The position numbers and the translations under genes are program-made. The notes under the pieces were generated by a model, which saw only the letters and a list, made by a program, of their open reading frames with translations, was not told the origin of the DNA and ran no database searches. A stretch of DNA of 9,717 nt from a virus (taxonomy: Duplodnaviria; Heunggongvirae; Uroviricota; Caudoviricetes): the IMG/VR virus record IMGVR_UViG_2695420646_000016, one strand, 5' to 3'. Below, piece by piece: positions 1 to 9,717 of the stretch (within the stretch, counting starts at the first letter, position 1; every line of letters starts with the position of its first letter).

Positions 1-669
1 GCAGCGACGCACACACTCCCTCTGGCGTCACCGGGCATGGCGCGCATCTGCCTTTACGGGGATTTACAACGATTTGGCCGCCGCATCGACCTTCGTGTGA
101 AAACGGGGGCTGAAGCCATTCGGGCGCTGGCCACACAGCTCCCGGCGTTTCGTCAGAAACTGAGCGACGGCTGGTATCAGGTACGGATTGCCGGGCGGGA
201 CGTCAGCACGTCCGGGTTAACGGCGCAGTTACATGAGACTCTGCCTGATGGCGCTGTGATTCATATTGTTCCCAGAGTCGCCGGGGCCAAGTCAGGTGGC
301 GTATTCCAGATTGTCCTGGGAGCAGCCGCCATTGCCGGATCATTCTTTACTGCCGGAGCCACCCTTGCAGCGTGGGGGGCAGCCATTGGGGCCGGTGGTA
401 TGACCGGCATCCTGTTTTCTCTCGGTGCCAGTATGGTGCTCGGTGGTGTGGCCCAGATGCTGGCACCGAAAGCCAGAACTCCCCGTATACAGACAACGGA
501 TAACGGTAAGCAGAACACCTATTTCTCCTCACTGGATAACATGGTTGCCCAGGGCAATGTTCTGCCTGTTCTGTACGGGGAAATGCGCGTGGGGTCACGC
601 GTGGTTTCTCAGGAGATCAGCACGGCAGACGAAGGGGACGGTGGTCAGGTTGTGGTGATTGGTCGCTGA
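1..669 (+). CDS. I: Tail (tip) assembly protein I, lambda gpI-like; 5' partial, start codon lies just upstream of the window
   Basis: Frame 1 is open from base 1 and translates as AATHTLPLASPG before the track's Met at 37, matching my recollection of the lambda gpI N-terminus (MAATHTLPLASPGMARICLYGDLQRF...). Stop TGA at 667-669. Gly/Ala-rich hydrophobic middle segment. Sits directly upstream of J, as in lambda. Confidence 0.88.
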   Translation, partial: AATHTLPLASPGMARICLYGDLQRFGRRIDLRVKTGAEAIRALATQLPAFRQKLSDGWYQVRIAGRDVSTSGLTAQLHETLPDGAVIHIVPRVAGAKSGGVFQIVLGAAAIAGSFFTAGATLAAWGAAIGAGGMTGILFSLGASMVLGGVAQMLAPKARTPRIQTTDNGKQNTYFSSLDNMVAQGNVLPVLYGEMRVGSRVVSQEISTADEGDGGQVVVIGR

Positions 670-687
670 TGCAAAATGTTTTATGTG

Positions 688-708
688 AAACCGCCTGCGG
701 GCGGTTTT
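688..708 (+). terminator. Short GC hairpin with T-tract in the I-J intergenic spacer (terminator-like or RNA-structure element)
   Basis: aaaccgcc (688-695), loop tgcg, ggcggttt (700-707), then tgtcattt. Perfect 8-bp inverted repeat seen directly. Lies inside an operon, so it may be an attenuator or stability element rather than a full terminator. Confidence 0.35.
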
Positions 709-729
709 GTCATTTATGGAGCGTGAGGA

Positions 730-3700
730 ATGGGTAAAGGCAGCAGTAAGGGGCATACCCCGCGCGAAGCGAAGGACAACCTGAAGTCCACGCAGTTGCT
801 GAGTGTGATCGATGCCATCAGCGAAGGGCCGGTTGAAGGTCCGGTGGATGGATTAAAAAGCGTGCTGCTGAACAGTACGCCGGTGCTGGACAGTGAGGGG
901 AATACCAATATATCCGGCGTCACGGTGGTGTTCCGGGCCGGTGAGCAGGAGCAGACACCGCCGGAGGGATTTGAATCATCCGGCTCCGAGACGGTGCTGG
1001 GTACGGAAGTGAAGTACGACACGCCGATTACCCGGACCATCACGTCGGCAAACATCGACCGTCTGCGCTTTACCTTCGGTGTGCAGGCACTGGTGGAAAC
1101 CACCTCAAAGGGGGACCGGAATCCGTCGGAAGTCCGCCTGCTGGTTCAGATACAGCGTAATGGTGGCTGGGTGACGGAAAAAGACATCACCATTAAAGGC
1201 AAAACCACCTCGCAGTATCTGGCCTCGGTGGTGGTGGGTAACCTGCCGCCGCGCCCGTTCAATATCCGGATGCGCAGGATGACGCCGGACAGCACCACAG
1301 ACCAGCTGCAGAACAAAACGCTCTGGTCGTCATACACCGAAATCATCGATGTGAAACAGTGCTACCCGAACACGGCACTGGTCGGCGTACAGGTGGATTC
1401 GGAGCAGTTCGGCAGCCAGCAGGTGAGCCGTAATTATCATCTGCGCGGGCGTATTCTGCAGGTGCCGTCGAACTATAACCCGCAGACTCGGCAATACAGC
1501 GGTATCTGGGACGGAACGTTTAAGCCAGCATACAGCAATAACATGGCCTGGTGTCTGTGGGATATGCTGACCCATCCACGCTACGGCATGGGGAAACGTC
1601 TTGGTGCGGCGGATGTGGACAAATGGGCGCTGTATGTCATCGGCCAGTACTGCGACCAGTCAGTGCCGGACGGCTTTGGCGGCACGGAGCCGCGCATCAC
1701 CTGTAATGCGTACCTGACCACACAGCGCAAGGCGTGGGATGTGCTCAGTGATTTCTGCTCGGCGATGCGCTGTATGCCGGTATGGAACGGGCAGACGCTG
1801 ACGTTCGTGCAGGACCGACCATCAGATAAGGTGTGGACCTATAACCGCAGTAATGTGGTGATGCCGGATGATGGCGCGCCGTTCCGCTACAGCTTCAGCG
1901 CCCTGAAGGACCGCCATAATGCCGTTGAGGTGAACTGGATTGACCCGAACAACGGCTGGGAGACGGCGACAGAGCTTGTTGAAGATACGCAGGCCATTGC
2001 CCGTTACGGTCGTAACGTCACGAAGATGGATGCCTTTGGCTGTACCAGCCGGGGGCAGGCGCACCGCGCCGGGCTGTGGCTGATTAAAACGGAACTGCTG
2101 GAAACGCAGACCGTGGACTTCAGCGTGGGTGCGGAAGGGCTTCGCCATGTACCGGGGGATGTCATTGAAATCTGCGATGATGACTATGCGGGTATCAGCA
2201 TCGGCGGGCGCGTGCTGGCGGTGAACAGCCAGACCCGGACGCTGACGCTCGACCGTGAAATCACGCTGCCATCCTCCGGTACCACGCTGATAAGCCTGGT
2301 TGACGGAAGTGGCAATCCGGTCAGCGTGGAGGTCCAGTCCGTCACCGACGGCGTGAAGGTAAAAGTGAGCCGTGTTCCTGACGGCGTTGCCGGATACAGC
2401 GTGTGGGGGCTGAAGCTGCCGACGCTGCGCCAGCGCCTGTTCCGCTGCGTGAGTATCCGTGAGAACGATGACGGCACGTATGCCATCACCGCCGTGCAGC
2501 ATGTACCGGAAAAAGAGGCCATCGTGGATAACGGGGCGCACTTTGACGGCGACCAGAGCGGCACGGTGAATGGTGTCACGCCGCCAGCGGTGCAGCACCT
2601 GGCCGCAGAAGTCACTGCAGACAGCGGGGAATATCAGGTGCTGGCGCGATGGGACACACCGAAGGTGGTGAAGGGCGTGAGCTTCCTGCTCCGTCTGACC
2701 GTAACAGCGGACGACGGCAGTGAGCGGCTGGTCAGCACGGCCCGGACGACGGAAACCACATACCGCTTCAGGCAACTGGCGCTGGGGCGTTACACGCTGA
2801 CGGTCCGGGCGGTAAATGCGTGGGGGCAGCAGGGCGATCCGGCATCGGTATCGTTCCGGATTGCGGCACCGGCAGCGCCTGTCACTATTGAACTGATACC
2901 AGGGTATTTTCAGATAACAGCGGTCCCGAAACTGGCTGTATATGACCCGACGGTGCAGTTTGAGTTCTGGTTCTCGGAAAAGCGGATTATCGATATCAGG
3001 CAGGTTGAAACCAGCGCGCGTTATCTTGGTACGGCGCTGTACTGGATAGCCGCCAGTAGCAATATTAAGCCGGGTTATGATTATTACTTTTATATCCGCA
3101 GCGTGAACACCGTTGGTAAATCGGCATTTGTGGAGGCCGTTGGTCGGGCGAGCGATGATGCGGAAGGTTATCTGAATTTTTATAAAGGGTTGATCAATAA
3201 AACGCATCTCGGCAAGGAACTGCTGGAAAACTTTGAGCTGACGGAAGATAACGCCAGCAAACTGGAGGAGTTTTCGAAAGAGTGGAAGGACGCCAACGAT
3301 AAATGGAATGCCATGTGGGGCGTCAAAATTGAGCAGACCAAAGACGGCAAACATTATGTCGCGGGGCTTGGCCTCAGCATGGAGGATACGGAGGAAGGCA
3401 AACTGAGCCAGTTCCTGGTTGCCGCTAACCGTATCGCGTTTATTGACCCGGCAAACGGGAATGAAACGCCGATGTTTGTGGCGCAGGGCAACCAGATATT
3501 CATGAACGACGTGTTCCTGAAGCGCCTGACAGCCCCCACTATTACCAGCGGTGGCAGTCCTCCGGTATTTTCCCTGACATCAGACGGAAAGCTGACCGCT
3601 AAAAATGCGGATATCAGTGGTAGTGTGAATGCGAACTCAGGAACGCTCAACAATGTCACGATTAACCAGAACTGTACGATTAAGGGCATGCTGGAGGCGA

Positions 3701-4143
3701 CTCAGGTCAGAGGTGACTTCGTTAAAGCTGTATCCAAATCATTTCCGAAACAGGCTGGTACGTGGGGTAACACGGAAACACCAAACGGGACGGTTACAGT
3801 CACCATCAGCGATGATCATAACTTTGACCGTCAAATCATTATTCCGCCCATTATCTTTAACGGAATAGCGTATAGCGATCCGGGAAGTGGTAATAACCCG
3901 GGAGGTACAAGATACACGGGTTATGGTTTTGAAGTTCGCAAAAACGGTGTATTAATCGCATCCAGAGAAACTAAAGGGGCCATTCCCGGTAGCTACAGTG
4001 CGGTTATTGATATGCCGAGTGGCAGGGGAAGCGTCACTCTGGAGTTTAAGGTTTTCCATAAAGGCAATCAGTGGGCAGGTAATATCACCGACTGTACGGT
4101 GATTGTGACCAAAAAAGCCGCTTCCGGCATCAGTATTCGTTGA
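730..4143 (+). CDS. J: Host specificity protein J (central tail fibre / tail tip), 1137 aa
   Basis: Long ORF with ATG at 730 preceded by GGAG at 718-721. N-terminus [34 protein letters not shown]... and most of the length match lambda gpJ as I recall it. The last ~150 aa differ from lambda J and the DNA becomes more AT-rich. Stop TGA at 4141-4143. Confidence 0.95.
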
Positions 4144-4164
4144 AATTGTTATAACCCATATAAG

Positions 4165-4188
4165 GGCACCAGAAATGGTGCCTTTTTT
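4165..4188 (+). terminator. Rho-independent terminator-like hairpin downstream of J
   Basis: ggcacc (4165-4170), loop agaaat, ggtgcc (4177-4182), followed by tttttt (4183-4188). Confidence 0.6.
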
Positions 4189-4212
4189 ATTGCAGAAAAG
4201 CGAGAGGTAATT

Positions 4213-4812
4213 ATGCGTAAACTTTATGCCGCCATTTTGTCCGCAGCCATTTGTCTGGCCGTATCCGGTGCGCCTGCATGGGCGTCTGAACATCAGTCCA
4301 CGCTGAGCGCGGGGTATCTTCATGCCCGGACGAACGTTCCCGGCAGTGATGATCTGAACGGGATTAACGTGAAATACCGTTATGAGTTTACGGACACACT
4401 GGGGCTGGTGACGTCATTCAGCTATGCAGGAGACAAGAATCGCCAGCTTACCCGTTACAGCGATACCCGCTGGCATGAAGATTCCGTGCGTAACCGCTGG
4501 TTCAGCGTGATGGTGGGGCCGTCTGTGCGCGTGAATGAATGGTTCAGCGCGTATGCGATGGCGGGTATGGCTTACAGCCGTGTGTCGACTTTCTCCGGGG
4601 ATTATCTCCGCGTAACTGACAACAAGGGGAAAACGCACGACGTGCTGACCGGAAGTGATGACGGTCGCCACAGCAACACGTCTCTGGCGTGGGGAGCTGG
4701 CGTGCAGTTTAACCCGACCGAATCCGTGGCCATTGATATTGCTTATGAAGGCTCCGGCAGTGGCGACTGGCGCACTGACGGTTTCATCGTGGGTGTCGGT
4801 TATAAGTTCTGA
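4213..4812 (+). CDS. lom: Outer membrane protein Lom (Ail/Lom family beta-barrel; lysogenic-conversion moron), 199 aa
   Basis: SD gagagg at 4202-4207, ATG at 4213. Signal-peptide-like N-terminus [24 protein letters not shown] followed by SEHQ. Alternating aromatic/hydrophobic beta-strand pattern and C-terminal ...GVGYKF typical of outer-membrane barrels. Sequence matches lambda Lom as recalled. Confidence 0.9.
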
Positions 4813-4838
4813 TTAGCCAGGTAACACAGTGTTATGAC

Positions 4839-4866
4839 AGCCCGCCGGTTCAGGCGGGCTTTTTTG
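4839..4866 (+). terminator. Rho-independent terminator downstream of lom
   Basis: agcccgcc (4839-4846), loop ggttca, ggcgggct (4853-4860), followed by tttttt. Confidence 0.7.
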
Positions 4867-4876
4867 TGGGGTGAAT

Positions 4877-7810
4877 ATGGCAGTAAAGATTTCAGGTGTA
4901 CTGAAAGACGGCACAGGAAAACCGGTACAGAACTGCACAATCCAGCTGAAAGCAAAACGTAACAGCACCACGGTGGTGGTGAACACGCTGGCCTCAGAAA
5001 ATCCGGATGAAGCCGGGCGTTACAGCATGGACGTTGAGTACGGGCAGTACAGCGTTATTCTGTTGGTGGAAGGATTCCCGCCGTCACATGCCGGGACCAT
5101 CACCGTGTATGAAGATTCTCAACCCGGTACGCTGAATGATTTTCTCGGTGCCATGACGGAGGATGATGCCCGTCCGGAGGCACTGCGCCGTTTTGAACAG
5201 ATGGTGGAAGAGGTGGCGCGTAACGCGTCCGCAGTGGCACAGAACACGGCAGCCGCGAAGAAGTCAGCCAGTGATGCCAGCACATCTGCCAGTGAGGCGG
5301 CAACCCATGCGACTGATGCTGCAGACTCAGCACGCGCAGCCAGCACGTCAGCCGGACAGGCCGCGACGTCGGCTCAGGAGGCTTTTTCCAGCGCAGGAAC
5401 GGCATCAGCAAAAGCCTCTGAGGCATCAAAAAGTGCTGCCGCTGCAGAGTCCTCAAAAAGCGCGGCGGCTACCAGTGCCGATGCGGCGAAAACGTCAGAA
5501 ACGAATGCGGCAGCGTCACAACAATCAGCAGCCACTTCTGCATCCACCGCGACCACGAAAGCGTCAGAAGCTGCCTCCTCAGCCCGGGATGCGTCGGCTT
5601 CAAAAGAGGCGGCAAAATCATCAGAAACGAACGCATCATCAAGCGCCAGTAGTGCCGCTTCCTCGGCAACGGCGGCAGGAAATTCCGCGAAGGCGGCAAA
5701 GACGTCTGAGACAAACGCTAAGTCCTCTGAAACGGCAGCGGAACAGAGTGCCTCAGCTGCGGCAGGCTCAAAAACAGCGGCTGCATCATCTGCCAGTGCC
5801 GCGTCAACAAGTGCCGGGCAGGCCTCAGCCAGTGCCACCGCCGCCGGAAAATCGGCAGAAAGTGCTGCATCGTCCGCTTCAACAGCCACAACGAAGGCTG
5901 GCGAAGCCGCTGTACAGGCCAGCGCAGCAGCGAGGTCTGCTTCCGCAGCGAAGACATCCGAGACGAACGCGAAAGCGTCGGAAACCAGCGCAGAATCCTC
6001 AAAAACGGCTGCCGCATCGTCCGCCAGTTCGGCGGCGTCATCGGCATCATCTGCGTCTGCTTCAAAAGATGAGGCGACCAGACAGGCGTCAGCAGCAAAG
6101 GGCAGCGCCACGACGGCATCCACGAAGGCGACAGAGGCAGCTGGCAGTGCGACGGCGGCAGCTCAGAGCAAAAGTACGGCGGAATCCGCGGCAACGCGCG
6201 CCGAGACAGCGGCAAAACGGGCAGAGGATATTGCATCCGCCGTGGCGCTTGAGGATGCGAGCACGACGAAAAAGGGGATAGTACAGCTCAGCAGTGCGAC
6301 TAACAGCACTTCCGAGTCACTGGCGGCAACGCCAAAAGCCGTTAAGGCCGCGTATGAGCTGGCTAACGGGAAATACACCGCACAGGATGCAACGACAGCA
6401 CAGAAAGGGATAGTTCAGCTTAGCAACGCGACCAACAGCACATCTGAAATGCTGGCGGCAACGCCAAAGTCGGTAAAGACAGCCTATGACCTTGCTAACG
6501 GGAAATATACTGCTCAGGACGCTACGACAGCACAAAAAGGAATTGTCCAGCTCAGTAGTGCAACCAACAGCGCATCTGAAACGCTTGCCGCGACACCGAA
6601 AGCAGTGAAAGCAGCTAATGATAATGCGAATGGTCGGGTACCTTCTGCCCGTAAGGTGAATGGTAAGGCGCTTTCAGCGGATATAACACTGACGCCGAAA
6701 GATATTGGTACGCTTAACTCAACAACAATGTCGTTCAGCGGTGGTGCTGGTTGGTTCAAATTAGCAACGGTAACCATGCCACAGGCGAGTTCTGTTGTTT
6801 CAATTACGTTGATTGGTGGCGCGGGATTTAACGTGGGGTCACCTCAACAGGCAGGTATATCTGAACTTGTTTTGCGTGCAGGTAATGGTAATCCGAAGGG
6901 GATTACTGGTGCTTTATGGCAGCGCACATCGACAGGGTTTACAAATTTTGCCTGGGTCAATACATCTGGTGATACTTACGATATTTACGTTGCAATCGGA
7001 AATTATGCGACTGGTGTAAATATTCAATGGGATTATACCAGTAATGCCAGCGTGACGATTCATACGTCACCAGCATATTCTGCTAATAAGCCGGAAGGGT
7101 TAACGGACGGTACAGTTTATTCACTCTATACGCCATCAGAGCAGTTTTATCCGCCTGGCGCACCAATCCCGTGGCCATCGGATACCGTTCCGTCTGGTTA
7201 TGCCCTGATGCAGGGGCAGACTTTTGACAAATCTGCCTACCCGAAACTTGCAGCCGCTTATCCGTCAGGCGTGATCCCTGATATGCGTGGCTGGACGATT
7301 AAGGGCAAACCTGCCAGTGGTCGTGCCGTATTGTCTCAGGAACAGGACGGCATTAAATCGCACGCCCACAGCGCCAGTGCATCCAGTACGGATTTGGGGA
7401 CGAAAACCACGTCGTCGTTTGATTATGGTACTAAGTCTTCAAATGCCACTGGTGACCATAACCACAGCCGAGGCACTATGGAAATTACCGGTACTCTCGG
7501 TTACTTCAGAAGTGATAGCGGTAATTTCTATACAGCAAGTGGAGCATTTACACTGGGTGGCTCTGCGCCAGCCCATGGATTTACGGGCTCTCAATTTACT
7601 TATGGTGTTCCTGTAAACTTTAACGCTTCCAGAACCTGGTCTGGTGCCACAAGCACTACAGGTAACCATGCGCACTCTGTTCCAATTGGTGCTCATGCGC
7701 ACTCCGTTGCGATTGGTTCACATGGACACACCATCACCGTTAACGCTGCTGGTAACGCGGAAAACACCGTCAAAAACATCGCATTTAACTATATTGTGAG
7801 GCTTGCATAA
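4877..7810 (+). CDS. stf: Side tail fibre protein Stf, about 977 aa, intact single ORF
   Basis: N-terminus [26 protein letters not shown]... matches lambda Stf. The track starts at GTG 4871, but ATG 4877 reproduces the lambda start and is preferred. Contains an Ala/Ser-rich shaft, 3 tandem 44-aa repeats and a C-terminal HxH-rich domain ending ...[18 protein letters not shown]. Stop TAA at 7808-7810 overlaps the tfa ATG. Confidence 0.9.
5230..6250 (+). repeat. Compositionally biased Ala/Ser/Thr-rich low-complexity region of Stf, with degenerate internal repeats
   Basis: About 340 codons dominated by GCN/TCN/ACN. Recurrent modules such as AKTSETNA(A/K)(A/S)SE at roughly 5490, 5617, 5700 and 5950. 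Both alternative frames and the minus strand stay open across it (track ORFs 5163..6281 and 5374..6123), a typical artefact of such bias. Confidence 0.75.
6263..6630 (+). repeat. Three tandem 132-bp (44-aa) repeats inside stf (phage tail-fibre repeat module)
   Basis: Units begin near 6263, 6395 and 6527: T(T/A)(K/Q)KGIVQLS(S/N)ATNS(T/A)SE(S/M/T)LAATPK(A/S)VK(A/T)AY(E/D)[11 protein letters not shown]. The third unit diverges after ...AANDNANG. The conserved Gly codon recurs at 6275, 6407 and 6539, giving an exact 132-nt period. Confidence 0.85.
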
Positions 7811-8394
7811 TGGCATTCAGAATGAGTGAACAAGCACGGACCATAAAAATTTATAATCTGCTGGCCGGAACTAATGAATTTATTGGTGAAGGTGACGCAT
7901 ATATTCCGCCTCATACAGGTCTGCCAGCAAACAGTACCGATATTGCACCGCCAGATATTCCGGCTGGCTTTGTGGCTGTTTTCAACAGTGATGAGGCATC
8001 GTGGCATCTCGTTGAAGATCATCGGGGTAAAACGGTTTATGACGTAGCTTCCGGCGACGCGTTATTTATTTCTGAACTCGGCTTATTACCGGAAAATGTT
8101 ACCTGGTTATCGCCGGAAGGGGAGTTTCAGAAGTGGAACGGCACAACCTGGGTGAAAGATGCAGAAGCAGAAAAACTGTTCCGGATCCGGGAGGCGGAAG
8201 AAACAAAAAACAACCTGATGCAGGTAGCCAGTGAGCATATTGCGCCGCTTCAGGATGCTGCAGATCTGGAAATTGCAACGGAGGAAGAAACCTCATTGCT
8301 GGAAGCCTGGAAAAAGTATCGGGTGTTGCTGAACCGTGTTGATACATCAACTGCACCTGATATTGAGTGGCCTACGAACCCTGTCAGGGAGTAA
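7810..8394 (+). CDS. tfa: Tail fibre assembly protein Tfa (tail-fibre chaperone), 194 aa
   Basis: ATG at 7810 overlaps the stf stop (taATGg), implying translational coupling. SD gtgagg at 7796-7801. N-terminus [53 protein letters not shown] matches lambda Tfa as recalled. Stop TAA at 8392-8394. Confidence 0.92.
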
Positions 8395-8441
8395 TCATTG
8401 GGATTATGCCGCAGCACGTCTTAAGCAAGAACGTGCTGCGG
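8245..8441 (+). repeat. Direct repeat copy A: 3' end of tfa plus downstream hairpin
   Basis: 8251-8394 aligns to 9289-9432 with about 15 mismatches in 144 bp by manual count. The following ~47 bp, including the hairpin, is also conserved with copy B. Confidence 0.85.
8409..8441. terminator. Perfect 11-bp-stem hairpin between convergent tfa (+) and the methyltransferase gene (-); candidate bidirectional terminator or RNA element
   Basis: ccgcagcacgt (8409-8419), 11-nt loop, acgtgctgcgg (8431-8441). A T-run (8452-8457) follows on the + strand but is 10 nt from the stem, so terminator function is uncertain. Confidence 0.45.
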
Positions 8442-8448
8442 TTGGATG

Positions 8449-9117
8449 CTATTTTTTCCCTGAAGCGGAAAACATTACTACAGTACCTTGAACCTTGGTT
8501 TTAACATTCTCGAAATGCTCTGAGAGTATATGTGTTAAGCCTTCTTCGGAATCTTTTGTGTTTGAAAAGATGCCTTTCTGATTGTAAATGCGCATCAGTT
8601 TTTGACCGAAGCTATTGTGCACAACTCCATCGCCAAGAATTGTGGCTCCGTATAGAGTTCCATCGTCAGTTAAGGCCTGCGCCGCATTGCGTATTACACA
8701 GCTTTTTGTAGATATATTTCCAGGCAGGCAGTGAAGAAGGTAAAACATGGAAATGGAATCAAATTGACCATGTAACGCCGCGGGATAAGGTTCAAAAACA
8801 TCATGGCTAATTTTATGTTTAATTTTTGATTCCCCAGCCCTTGTAGATGCCGCGTTCAGGCTAGCTTCGTTCAAATCCATTAAAGATATCAGACTACTCT
8901 CAGGTACGTGAGTAAGGTAAAACCCAGTTCCAACACCAATATCCAGATGGTTGTTACCTACATGTTCCAGAAAGTGTGGAAGAAGGTGTTCCTTTGTAGG
9001 ACATCCCCATGCAAGCCGATTTGATACTCCCAAAACCCACCAGTCATAAAGCTTTAGGGTAAGTGGTGTGTAAATTTTAGCCCCATCATCTGTGTTTTTT
9101 TTCATTGATTTCACCAT
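8449..9117 (-). CDS. Class I (Rossmann-fold) SAM-dependent methyltransferase, substrate unknown; AT-rich moron
   Basis: 222-aa ORF with stop TAG at 8449-8451. SAM-binding motif I LDIGVGTGF (hh-D-h-G-x-G-x-G), acidic post-I residue in ISLMDLNE, motif II-like QFDSISMFYLLHCLP, motif III-like LTDDGTLYG. About 38% GC versus about 55-65% in the tail genes. The start may be the second Met (9105), which has a GGTGA SD 5 nt upstream; Met at 9117 has none. Confidence 0.75.
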   Translation of the reverse strand: MVKSMKKNTDDGAKIYTPLTLKLYDWWVLGVSNRLAWGCPTKEHLLPHFLEHVGNNHLDIGVGTGFYLTHVPESSLISLMDLNEASLNAASTRAGESKIKHKISHDVFEPYPAALHGQFDSISMFYLLHCLPGNISTKSCVIRNAAQALTDDGTLYGATILGDGVVHNSFGQKLMRIYNQKGIFSNTKDSEEGLTHILSEHFENVKTKVQGTVVMFSASGKK

Positions 9118-9282
9118 GTTATAGTTTTATTTGTGAATTAAATCAATTATGGCGATGAATTACAAGGGGTTAAATGCTGCCGCAGCATAGCGATATTGAA
9201 ATAGCCTGGTATGCTTCGATACAGCAGGAGCCGAATGGCTGGAAGACCGTCACCACACAGTTCTACATCCAGGAATTCAGTG

Positions 9283-9432
9283 CCACTGCAGGATGCTGTA
9301 GATCTGGAAATCGCAACGGAGGAAGAAAGATCGTTGCTGGAGGCATGGAATAAATATCGGGTATTGTTGAATCGTGTTGATACATCAACTGCACCTGATA
9401 TTGAGTGGCCTGCAAATCCTGTCAGGGAGTAA
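9283..9432 (+). pseudogene. Tail fibre assembly protein C-terminal fragment (tfa remnant), direct-repeat copy B
   Basis: Encodes ...[49 protein letters not shown], matching the last ~49 aa of the Tfa at 7810-8394. No Tfa N-terminal domain; the upstream part of track ORF 9211..9432 has no Tfa similarity. Same stop context gagtaatcattggg. Confidence 0.75.
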
Positions 9433-9480
9433 TCATTGGGATTATGCCGCAGACACGTCGTATGCAGGAACGTGCTGCGG
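9283..9480 (+). repeat. Direct repeat copy B: tfa 3' end plus degenerate copy of the hairpin
   Basis: Aligns to 8245-8441. The hairpin arms are imperfect here (ccgcagacacgtcg ... aacgtgctgcgg). Confidence 0.85.
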
Positions 9481-9546
9481 CTAGTTTGTGAGCTTTCGAT
9501 AGTGGTTGTTATTTTTGCCCTTATTTGTTCCGGAGGCCATGGTTCA

Positions 9547-9717
9547 ATGGTCCGTCTGCCCCCTGTGGTGATGTCAGCAAAATCAGCCACTGCGCGAACC
9601 ACAATAGCCCGGGAAGATGCTGAAGATCACCAGGTAAAGCTATCAGCGCAGAAACTGGAAGAACTGCTCGCATCAATGGTTAAGGATGAGGTTGATCGCA
9701 ATGATGGGATTTATTGA
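9547..9717 (+). CDS. Hypothetical small protein, 56 aa, function unknown
   Basis: ATG at 9547 preceded by a strong SD GGAGG (9532-9536). Translates as MVRLPPVVMSAKSATARTTIAREDAEDHQVKLSAQKLEELLASMVKDEVDRNDGIY, stop TGA at 9715-9717. Charged, probably helical C-terminal half. I cannot place it in a family from memory. The track's longer 9436 start lies inside repeat copy B and lacks an SD. Confidence 0.4.
   Translation: MVRLPPVVMSAKSATARTTIAREDAEDHQVKLSAQKLEELLASMVKDEVDRNDGIY

Follow-up and report, generated by a model that had tools for sequence, protein, structure and literature searches.

The DNA analysed here, a stretch of 9,717 nucleotides assigned to a Caudoviricetes virus (the window), carries a lambda-type late/tail block whose last gene is tfa. 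The tfa stop codon lies at 8394 and a gene on the minus strand follows, a gene layout that the first-pass annotation had described correctly. This end of the window contains the following features.

7810-8394, plus strand: tfa, an intact tail fibre assembly gene of 194 aa (full-length match to PF02413, Caudo_TAP, E = 5e-44)
8244-8441, plus strand: left direct-repeat copy, with tfa codons ~146-194, the stop codon and hairpin H1
8409-8441, plus strand: hairpin H1 (CCGCAGCACGT, 11-nt loop, ACGTGCTGCGG), terminator-like, situated where the late operon ends and bounding the cassette on its left
8449-9105, minus strand: cargo gene for a class I SAM-dependent methyltransferase of the ybcY family, 218 aa (Pfam Methyltransf_12/23/25/11)
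9118-9146, minus strand: predicted sigma-70-type promoter of the methyltransferase gene, read from the sequence (-35 TTGATT at 9146-9141, 17-nt spacer, -10 TATAAC at 9123-9118)
9174-9188, no strand: 15-bp perfect palindrome ATGCTGCCGCAGCAT upstream of this promoter, likewise a sequence reading
9174-9432, plus strand: tfa', a tfaX-type remnant with ~80 C-terminal codons from another tfa allele (C-terminal match to PF02413)
9282-9480, plus strand: right direct-repeat copy, with the 3' end of tfa', its stop codon and hairpin H2
9447-9480, plus strand: hairpin H2 (dG -26.5 kcal/mol), identical to the second hairpin of lambda, after ea47
9540-9717, plus strand: remnant of a DUF4376-type, tail-fibre-related gene that leaves the window (PHROG 7703/1141, 'tail fiber protein')

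The window tfa is ~91% identical to lambda orf-194, and the last 151 nt of the gene, together with 47 nt downstream of it, recur in direct orientation beyond the methyltransferase gene. A repeat search of the window returned two blocks, 8244-8414/9282-9452 at 90% and 8415-8441/9454-9480 at 89%, which are divided by a 1-nt indel inside the hairpin. In a global alignment, the left and right copies were identical at 178/199 positions (89.4%; bl2seq E = 4.6e-74). Direct repeats with about 90% identity had been proposed in the first-pass annotation; both their presence and the degree of identity were confirmed, and only the edges had to be moved slightly, to 8244-8441 and 9282-9480. The divergence between the copies is mostly synonymous (pS 0.36, pN 0.04, pN/pS 0.11, Fisher p = 4e-6), which indicates that they are two once-functional tfa alleles and not a decayed duplication. 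Many of the differences between the two copies are ordinary polymorphisms common among tfa alleles, so that chimeric patterns by themselves are no proof of crossover. The left arm from ~8335 to H1 is invariant among the six carriers that retain the left tfa end, and its carrier-specific marks are ACGAAC at 8374-8379 and the H1 loop.

The methyltransferase gene (GC content 41.1%) and the whole segment 8442-9281 (41.3%) are AT-rich compared with the tail genes (54-59%) and tfa (47.7%), and no 657-nt window across positions 1-8394 fell under 45.5% GC. The value of ~38% given originally for the gene was too low, although the gene is indeed well below the tail genes. Its GC3 was 35.3% versus 57.6% for the tail genes (Fisher p = 2.6e-10), and synonymous codon usage differed as well (G-test p = 3e-12), whereas the GC3 difference from the adjoining tfa alone was not significant (p = 0.086).

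The tfa' remnant falls short of a full domain, covering only positions 83-130 of the 131 positions of PF02413, and its frame is broken; we therefore consider it a pseudogene fragment. The disruption of the frame in the window is an 11-bp deletion (GAGTATATTGC) at 9281/9282 that was absent from all 3,267 E. coli genomes spanning the junction, and in other carriers the DNA repeat begins ~15 bp further left than in the window. At the protein level, Tfa homology extends leftward to about 9174-9195, and this leftward part of the remnant is a Tfa-like frame without DNA similarity to the resident tfa. In other carriers (L001, L007, phage 204576) an intact ATG-initiated ORF of 89 aa runs through tfa', and it aligns with some phage Tfa proteins from residue 8-9 and with lambda Tfa from residue 27. 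Apart from the Nissle type, all carriers have the same sequence at 9174-9341. A tblastn search for the source allele of the remnant's left part gave distant Tfa alignments only. H277 was considered as the source of this divergent part and rejected, since a deletion has joined its stf to tfa'.

The methyltransferase ORF extends over 8449-9117 and has an alternative upstream ATG at 9117; based on the position of the promoter and the lengths of the PHROG and Nissle proteins, we place the start at the ATG at 9105 (218 aa). PHROG 2132 matches the protein full-length (218/218 positions, E = 4e-157), and a cluster of 6,589 sequences contains a protein 100% identical to it. Across 30 homologs, neither SAM motif I (DIGVGTG) nor the acidic residues vary, and the AF2 model has a pLDDT of 91.4. 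In K-12, the ybcY sequence TTGATT-17-TATAAC was listed in genomic SELEX with the RpoD holoenzyme, and the spacer that holds this promoter was also bound by H-NS (PMC3946193). The palindrome ATGCTGCCGCAGCAT upstream of the promoter has the 10-mer TGCCGCAGCA in common with the left arm of the hairpin; every tfa'-type carrier retains it, and the Nissle type has a changed version.

Hairpin H1, which the 3' end of the methyltransferase gene abuts, has an 11-bp stem with a dG of -28.6 kcal/mol (z -4.4); its pattern occurred 0 times in 200 shuffles, and lambda, L003 and L004 have retained it behind tfa. For H2, the similarity to lambda continues ~35 nt downstream. The consensus terminator scan flagged H2 and not H1, where the T-run begins 9 nt past the stem. 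With its T-run offset or interrupted, the hairpin is not a canonical intrinsic terminator. A sub-threshold match was obtained between the hairpin and the 3' hairpin of the Shigella sRNA model CssrB. The 34-bp hairpin has sequence-invariant arms (CCGCAG(A)CACG...CGTGCTGCGG): among 10 copies the loops and flanks vary and a single compensatory change was found. The base of the stem is the exact point at which homology ends in four unrelated left contexts. Many prophages contain the element, and it marks the distal end of Qin. Two other assignments were rejected: a small minus-strand ORF through the second lambda hairpin has its frame broken by a 1-nt indel between lambda and Qin, and the Rfam 'IS009' matches are the tfa coding region itself. 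The sole mention of IS009 that we found in the literature is a generic prophage-associated hit. The hairpin sequence also appears unlike the REP consensus of REP/BIME elements.

The cassette is widespread. At ≥95% identity it was present in 3,844/5,426 complete E. coli genomes, and at ≥99% identity in 2,840 records, with up to 4 copies per genome; the whole 1.9-kb stretch was found at ≥99% in only 29 records. It is carried by the isolated phages PhiR26_1, 2G7b, ev243, Turner and Kati, and was also found in inducible phages. The joint between the methyltransferase gene and tfa' is common to 3,437/3,830 carrier genomes, and its presence in ~90% of carriers indicates a single origin of this joint. 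A right joint lies inside tfa' at ~9342 in K-12 and at ~9388 in O157, 2G7b and PhiR26, and there is none in the prophage type integrated at ompW. In S65EC, debris of a pin module lies to the left of the cassette. An origin as an invertible segment of the Pin/Gin kind was rejected, the repeats being direct.

At the ompW site, we found 20 empty genomes versus roughly 360 occupied ones with identical flanks. The empty allele has the layout tfa-hairpin-DUF4376' with one tfa end and no cassette, so that variants in which a single tfa end replaces the cassette, as anticipated in the first-pass annotation, do exist in prophages of the same site. The right repeat copy from ~9373 rightward is identical to the resident tfa end of these empty-site prophages, and 9/10 sampled empties carry exactly the 3' end seen right of 9373 in the window. 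RefSeq has a DUF4376 pseudogene at the equivalent place, and this downstream flank is common to the empty-site prophages. The prophage backbones of the sampled empties match the window at just 76-92% identity in J and stf, so that no sampled empty is a recent derivative. In one of them, EFF60, the carrier-specific left arm is joined to H2, with the switch within a 34-bp identity block. Most sampled empty sites look never-occupied and not excised, and only EFF60 has the signature expected of loss. The earlier suggestion that the repeats could allow loss by homologous recombination agrees with the EFF60 junction.

The slot after tfa accepts other cargo as well. Lambda is without the cassette and has ea47 there; elsewhere we found an AAA-ATPase/McrC (McrBC-like) pair, a set of GIY-YIG, Dcm and REase genes (an R-M system), pinQ, and a catalase/yciEFG-like cluster. 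The view of the post-tfa region as a hotspot is borne out by this alternative cargo and the empty sites. The first-pass annotation had named as contrary outcomes a segment invariably present in related prophages and a composition like that of the flanking genes; instead, empty and alternative-cargo variants exist, and GC content and codon usage differ from the tail genes.

We interpret 8442-9281 as a moron positioned after the tail-fibre module and moved by homologous recombination between tfa ends, and consider this reading about 80% probable. It draws on the direct repeat and the base composition, on the alternative cargo and the empty sites that are allelic to the cassette, and on the three distinct right joints and the conservation of the unit; which way individual events went, and by which recombination enzymes, we infer. 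The moron would be an AT-rich transcription unit, complete in itself and targeted by H-NS, that runs opposite to the phage late operon in a variable slot directly past the terminal hairpin of the tail-fibre module. The mobile unit would consist of H1, the methyltransferase gene, its promoter and the 5' part of a pseudogenised tfa from a foreign phage (9174-~9341), and the joint between the methyltransferase gene and the foreign tfa would have arisen once, probably by an illegitimate event. With tfa-end sequence on both of its sides, such a unit would be movable by ordinary homologous recombination into any lambdoid phage with a related tfa, either by host RecA or by phage functions of the Red/RecET type. 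The left crossover would fall in tfa/H1, and the right one would pair the remnant with the tfa 3' end that the recipient already has. For the ompW prophage type, the right crossover may be placed at ~9373-9411, and everything rightward would be the resident tfa end, H2 and native DNA. The same repeats would permit occasional loss of the cassette. The mosaic junctions support recombination inside the repeat, in agreement with the exchange between tfa genes of different phages suggested originally. A donor remnant ending at ~9387, as in PhiR26, would leave only ~15 bp of identity for the ompW right crossover.

Since the two copies are direct repeats of one orientation with just 1 kb between them, they might instead stem from a tandem duplication of the tfa 3' end in situ, on either side of an inserted gene, with the redundant copy slowly diverging thereafter. 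We regard this as very improbable: a redundant copy in decay would not be expected to show so low a pN/pS with its synonymous bias, the Tfa-like frame in the leftward part of the remnant has no counterpart in the DNA of the resident tfa, and the remnant-specific SNPs accompany the methyltransferase gene in unrelated prophages while the resident tfa varies. The rejection of a recent tandem duplication in the first-pass annotation was thus well founded. A different mechanism of movement would follow if the hairpin were an attC-like site-specific recombination site or a protein-binding site, with a dedicated recombinase moving the cargo and the tfa homology being incidental. The invariance of the stem arms against varying loops and flanks, the homology breaks at the stem base, the pair of direct copies on either side of lambda ea47 and the frequency of the element in prophages would fit this. 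However, no recombinase is consistently adjacent to the cassette among the neighbouring genes, the right-hand joints lie inside tfa' and not at the hairpin, and the EFF60 junction sits in a plain block of sequence identity. A selected terminator or insulator together with recent common ancestry would equally explain the conservation, and the CssrB match, although sub-threshold, fits an RNA 3' end; a site-specific origin is accordingly unlikely. To a similarly small degree we credit the idea that carriers without the deletion have in the tfa' ORF a short but functional Tfa paralogue, with the methyltransferase gene and tfa' forming a selected divergent pair and not cargo plus debris. The unbroken 89-aa ORF, the 101-aa Tfa annotated in PhiR26_1 and the strong conservation of 9174-9341 speak for it. 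Against it, the ORF has been broken independently in several lineages (the 11-bp frameshift in the window, an internal stop in K-12), its C-terminus is replaced or truncated in O157, 2G7b and PhiR26, and PGAP calls it a pseudogene in most genomes; moreover, the plus-strand tfaX promoter (PMC3946193) would initiate transcription downstream of the ATG of the ORF.

As for the cargo itself, the model of YbcY resembles small-molecule or lipid methyltransferases rather than DNA methylases. The structural neighbours were PmtA, JHAMT, PfPMT and NodS, and the best Foldseek match was PmtA 8ys9 (15-17% identity, TM 0.63-0.66). The protein fell far below the family cut-offs for the phospholipid N-methyltransferase PmtA (NF045882, 15.7 bits vs 390) and for the RquA NCBIfam (16.9 vs 175). 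Non-phage homologs with 56-68% identity, also AT-rich, occur in the chromosomes of Enterobacter, Yersinia and Erwinia, where they are lone genes, and the methyltransferase appears to be a cellular-type enzyme captured by a phage. That a phage-borne methyltransferase might be an anti-restriction or orphan DNA methylase, as is common in phage accessory regions, is suggested by the R-M systems that fill the same slot in other prophages. Yet Pfam and NCBIfam gave no DNA-methylase family match, the (D/N/S)PP(Y/F) and PCQ/ENV motifs are absent from the sequence, PADLOC gave no match, none of the best structural neighbours acts on nucleic acids, and the homologs of other genera stand alone in their chromosomes; we consider this reading highly improbable. 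The first-pass annotation, for its part, had made no claim that the enzyme is a DNA methylase. A role in anti-phage defence was rejected as well, as PADLOC returned a non-significant match only. So was the capture of a methyltransferase and esterase pair: the alpha/beta-hydrolase adjoining the cassette in the ompT phages is unrelated to the esterases that adjoin the chromosomal homologs (BLASTP E = 0.82 and 0.005, over short stretches). The captured enzyme would act on a small molecule or lipid of the host in the lysogen, i.e., in lysogenic conversion. More speculative, and in our view doubtful, is the combination of a hairpin serving as a dedicated boundary of cargo slots (a recombination linker or protein-bound insulator) and, separately, of YbcY acting in lysogenic conversion by methylating a lipid or metabolite of the host, an enzyme kept up in ~70% of E. 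coli.

Beyond this locus, the cassette is a quantified example of a leftover gene fragment that becomes a portable homology arm for cargo transfer between phages. It also draws attention to an intact, highly conserved and uncharacterised methyltransferase in prophages of ~70% of E. coli genomes, and to a conserved hairpin that delimits cargo slots, phage lambda included.

The best enzyme neighbours in structure and sequence, PmtA, JHAMT, UbiG and the phosphoethanolamine methyltransferases, share with YbcY the Rossmann fold and the conserved SAM motif I, but only 13-21% identity, at TM-scores of 0.55-0.68. As a locus, the cassette of the window is the ybcY cassette of the K-12 prophage DLP12 (tfaD'-ybcY-tfaX), a likeness that the first-pass annotation had pointed to; it is an already known element and a typical moron. 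In K-12 BW2952 a truncated tfa precedes it, a tfa remnant comes after it and appY-ompT come next, and the two loci share 96% DNA identity over the tfa 3' end, hairpin, methyltransferase gene, promoter and tfa', including an identical promoter motif TTGATT-17-TATAAC. They differ in that the left tfa of K-12 is truncated and fused to a terminase fragment, whereas that of the window is intact, and in that K-12 ybcY has lost its start codon by a 2-nt deletion and is a pseudogene, whereas the window methyltransferase gene is intact. In addition, K-12 tfaX is another allele from ~9342, has an internal stop and lacks H2 before appY-ompT, while the remnant of the window reaches its stop codon and H2; the K-12 prophage is at argU and that of the window at ompW. 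The element has been annotated since the K-12 genome and fits the moron/mosaic picture of lambdoid phages, leaving the understanding of these phages unchanged. We found no description of the repeat-bracketed structure in the literature on ybcY, tfaX, the post-tfa hotspot and exchangeable effector loci.

Close counterparts are the morons of lambdoid phages in the sense of Juhala and Hendrix, with lom and bor as examples, and the variable cargo region that separates the tail-fibre genes from att. Like such morons, the cassette forms a transcription unit independent of its surroundings, with a predicted promoter, a bounding hairpin and atypical composition, lies between conserved modules, is present or absent among related phages and is predicted to be expressed in the prophage. 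The locus combines a promoter motif (predicted here) and a flanking terminator-like hairpin with distinct composition and presence/absence at a module boundary. As regards a site-specific cassette, several left joints are at the hairpin stem base, and the right joints are inside tfa'. Unlike the usual moron, which sits between unrelated sequences, this one has a portable homology arm in the form of a foreign tfa fragment and is bracketed by ~200-bp direct repeats. The start of the lambda b-region (tfa-hairpin-ea47-hairpin) is the same slot, in which two direct hairpins, the second identical to H2, bracket one reverse-strand cargo gene; it differs in that the cargo is ea47, there is no tfa remnant, and the repeat consists of the hairpin and a few tens of bases.

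The element downstream of tfa is the already annotated ybcY/tfaX cassette, which behaves as a typical moron at an established hotspot. The window covers the right end of a lambda-type tail module whose genes, from gpI to tfa, all lie on the plus strand:

37-669, plus strand, gpI
730-4143, plus strand, gpJ
4213-4812, plus strand, lom
4871-7810, plus strand, stf
7810-8394, plus strand, tfa
8409-8441, hairpin H1, fold -28.6 kcal/mol
after tfa, minus strand, class I SAM-dependent methyltransferase (MT) gene
9146-9118, minus strand, MT promoter motif TTGATT-17-TATAAC
right of MT, C-terminal piece of a tail fibre assembly protein (the tfa remnant)
9447-9480, hairpin H2, fold -26.5 kcal/mol

A tandem pair of 27-nt units (81% identical to each other) near the 3′ end of stf, at 7667-7720, gives the protein a repeated HAHSVxIG motif. 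Downstream of the remnant lies a DUF4376-type tail-fibre-related gene fragment (9540-9717; PHROG 'tail fiber protein'), next to which relatives have either Rha/ash genes or, immediately, the split ompW gene; the presence of this fragment indicates that the locus consists of stacked leftovers of successive tail-fibre module replacements.

The direct repeat of the tfa 3′ end reported in the first-pass annotation is real: its copies (8244-8441 and 9282-9480) were identical at 178 of 199 positions with a single 1-nt indel (bl2seq, E = 4.6e-74). Each comprises the final ~50 codons of tfa with their stop codon, followed by a hairpin whose stem is 11 bp long. Many of the differences are ordinary polymorphisms common to tfa alleles, and the divergence is mostly synonymous (pS 0.36, pN 0.04, pN/pS 0.11; Fisher p = 4e-6), showing that both copies evolved as working genes. 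As judged from this alignment, they are different tfa alleles. The Rfam model RF02111 ('IS009', a candidate sRNA) gave a full-score match to the tfa 3′ coding region (8153-8351) and a sub-threshold one at 9156-9389; it also matches tfa of lambda and of Qin-type prophages, and may reflect conserved tfa coding sequence rather than RNA structure. RefSeq also has a 45-aa ORF (WP_001309429; ~8367-8504, plus strand; labelled 'nucleocapsid protein' in K-12) running from the tfa end across the hairpin into the 3′ end of MT; this annotation is probably spurious.

The segment had also been described as AT-rich at about 38% GC. The contrast with the tail genes was confirmed for both composition and codon usage, but the value was not: the MT gene has 41.1% GC, compared with 54-59% in the tail genes and 47.7% in tfa. 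Its GC3 is 35% versus 58% in the tail genes (p = 2.6e-10), its synonymous codon usage differs from theirs (p = 3e-12), and no window of MT size in the tail block is equally AT-rich. Against tfa alone, the GC3 contrast was non-significant (p = 0.086).

The suggested likeness to the tfaD-ybcY-tfaX arrangement proved correct: the stretch recurs in DLP12 of K-12 with 96% identity, in the order truncated tfaD, disabled ybcY, tfaX, appY-ompT. K-12 ybcY is frameshifted according to RefSeq; our alignment placed a 2-nt deletion that removes the start codon. The 840-bp core (8442-9281) was present at ≥95% identity throughout in 3,844 of 5,426 complete E. coli genomes, with at most four copies per genome, and was ≥99% identical in 2,840 records. 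Isolated temperate phages carry it too, among them PhiR26_1, PhiR29/30, 2G7b, ev243, Turner and Kati. In PhiR26_1 and 2G7b it has tfa on one side and a hydrolase-ompT(-int) block on the other, and these two phages look like intact DLP12 relatives. In both, ompT and alpha/beta-hydrolase cargo occupies the space between cassette and genome right end, adjoining the integrase gene in 2G7b, which suggests that the K-12 ompT region is the decayed end of a phage of this kind. For the stf-to-end region of the window, the nearest relatives were prophages of strains such as UTI89, S88, APEC O1 and NU14, and all close relatives carried the cassette.

The MT promoter motif is listed for ybcY in genomic SELEX with the K-12 RpoD holoenzyme, and the K-12 spacer holding it is also bound by H-NS (PMC3946193). 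Since the first ATG (9117) lies directly against the predicted promoter, translation likely starts from the one at 9105; the resulting 218 aa agree with the PHROG 2132 profile and the Nissle annotation. The protein matched only generic class I methyltransferase families, with weak sequence similarity to JHAMT and UbiG, and its SAM-binding residues were invariant in 30 homologs. The AlphaFold model was confident (pLDDT 91.4), and its best structural neighbours, PmtA, JHAMT, phosphoethanolamine MT, NodS and natural-product MTs, are small-molecule or lipid methyltransferases, with no nucleic-acid methylase among them. On these grounds a DNA-methylase role is excluded, which is an addition of the present analysis; we found minimal published information on ybcY. 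PADLOC gave no defence-system match for MT. In Enterobacter, Yersinia and Erwinia, homologs with 56-68% identity stand alone in the chromosome, the Enterobacter one likewise AT-rich, and intermediate homologs in Citrobacter and Salmonella lie within prophage or island cargo regions. We conclude that MT is a captured cellular-type gene whose product, in the lysogen, probably methylates a metabolite or lipid of the host.

The window differs from all other carriers of the cassette by an 11-bp deletion (GAGTATATTGC) at 9281/9282, which puts the tfa remnant out of frame and makes the repeat look shorter. The deletion was absent from all 3,267 E. coli genomes that span this junction and is therefore either private to the source or a sequencing error. 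In the other carriers, the ATG equivalent to 9174 starts an 89-aa frame that continues into the Tfa C-terminus. Alignment with this frame begins at residue 8-9 for some phage Tfa proteins and at residue 27 for lambda Tfa; thus, the remnant represents ~80 codons of a more divergent tfa, whose DNA-level likeness to the resident gene is limited to its last ~50 codons. It is a pseudogene, disrupted separately in different lineages by a frameshift in the window, an internal stop in K-12 and a replaced C-terminus in O157, 2G7b and PhiR26. At 9174-9188, ~30 bp upstream of the MT promoter -35 element, lies a perfect palindrome of 15 bp (ATGCTGCCGCAGCAT) that has the 10-mer TGCCGCAGCA in common with the hairpin left arm. 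The Nissle-type allele has an altered version of this palindrome, which may be an operator or what is left of a further hairpin copy.

MT, its promoter region and remnant positions 9174-9341 were essentially invariant across K-12, O157, S65EC, strain 300709, 2G7b and PhiR26. Of these, only O157 lacks the common H1-type left arm: its hairpin differs in the loop, and no tfa end lies to the left of it. Beyond the constant part on the right, the point of divergence within the remnant takes three forms: ~9342 for K-12, ~9388 for O157, 2G7b and PhiR26, and none for the ompW-site type, whose remnant continues to its stop codon, H2 and the DUF4376 fragment. The MT-promoter-remnant joint was present in 3,437 of 3,830 carrier genomes; the remaining ones have the 97%-identical Nissle-type allele, which diverges at ~9200 and is without the remnant. 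In UR21/11-869 (L155 1239-3260), tfa, the left hairpin and MT are all lost and a truncated stf is fused straight to the remnant at the equivalent of ~9220, another independent rearrangement at the locus.

Variants with a single tfa end in place of the cassette, as the first-pass annotation had envisaged, do exist. The predicted deletion product (7810-8441 joined to 9481-9717) occurs as a single contiguous stretch, and with a query short enough that carriers cannot attain 80% coverage we counted 20 empty genomes; as 381 genomes hold both flanks, ~360 are occupied. All ten empties examined were prophages at the same ompW site, beside yciE-trp, where the best matches to the repeat region also lie. 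Nine of them, from the equivalent of 8374 rightward, are exactly the right copy of the window beyond 9373, which places the right-hand crossover of the insertion at ~9373-9411; by sequence, these nine look like the never-occupied state. The empty site of EFF60 joins the carrier-specific left arm (ACGAAC at 8374-8379) to an H2-type hairpin, with the switch point inside a 34-bp block identical between both copies. This junction has the signature expected from excision via repeat recombination and is likely one excision product. The polarity of gain and loss is tentative: in J and stf, backbone identity between the empties and the window is no more than 76-92%. The three right-hand joints, the allelic empty sites and the one likely excision product identify the tfa fragment as a portable homology arm; this evidence, together with the definition of the mobile unit, is added here. 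The original observation was thus confirmed and its interpretation as cargo exchange supported.

The region after tfa is indeed the cargo hotspot it had been taken for, with other prophages carrying an AAA-ATPase/McrC pair, a GIY-YIG protein with Dcm and a type II endonuclease, or pinQ in this slot, and lambda carrying ea47. O157 has a catalase/yciEFG-like stress cluster left of the hairpin-MT-remnant unit; in strain 644-PT8 (L006 2337-4550) it consists of a paralogous Mn catalase and yciE-, yciF- and yciG-like genes between tfa and the unit, with an orphan hairpin copy on its right.

The 34-bp hairpin recurs at the boundaries of such cargo slots. Its stem arms were invariant in ten copies apart from one compensatory change (in lambda), its loops and flanks were variable, and homology ends exactly at the stem base in four unrelated contexts. 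A copy lies at 6321-6354 of locus L005, and Qin-type prophages have one near their distal end. The hairpin was found in at least 120 viral contigs and is common in prophage-derived ones; joined to ~60 nt of conserved sequence on its downstream side, it occurs in 1,153 E. coli genomes, always in unannotated DNA. Positions 8409-8440 matched the 3′-terminal stem-loop of the Shigella sRNA model CssrB (RF02799) below threshold (36 bits, E = 2e-5), a similarity which hints that transcripts may end at the hairpin in vivo. Most simply, the hairpin would be a late-operon terminator or insulator kept at module boundaries that also gives recombination homology; a specific recombination or protein-binding role is a less likely alternative. 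In lambda, two direct copies (L011 3601-3634 and 5190-5223) flank ea47, the second being identical to H2 and similar also in the ~35 nt downstream; the same hairpin is doubled around ea47 there, as it is around MT in the window.
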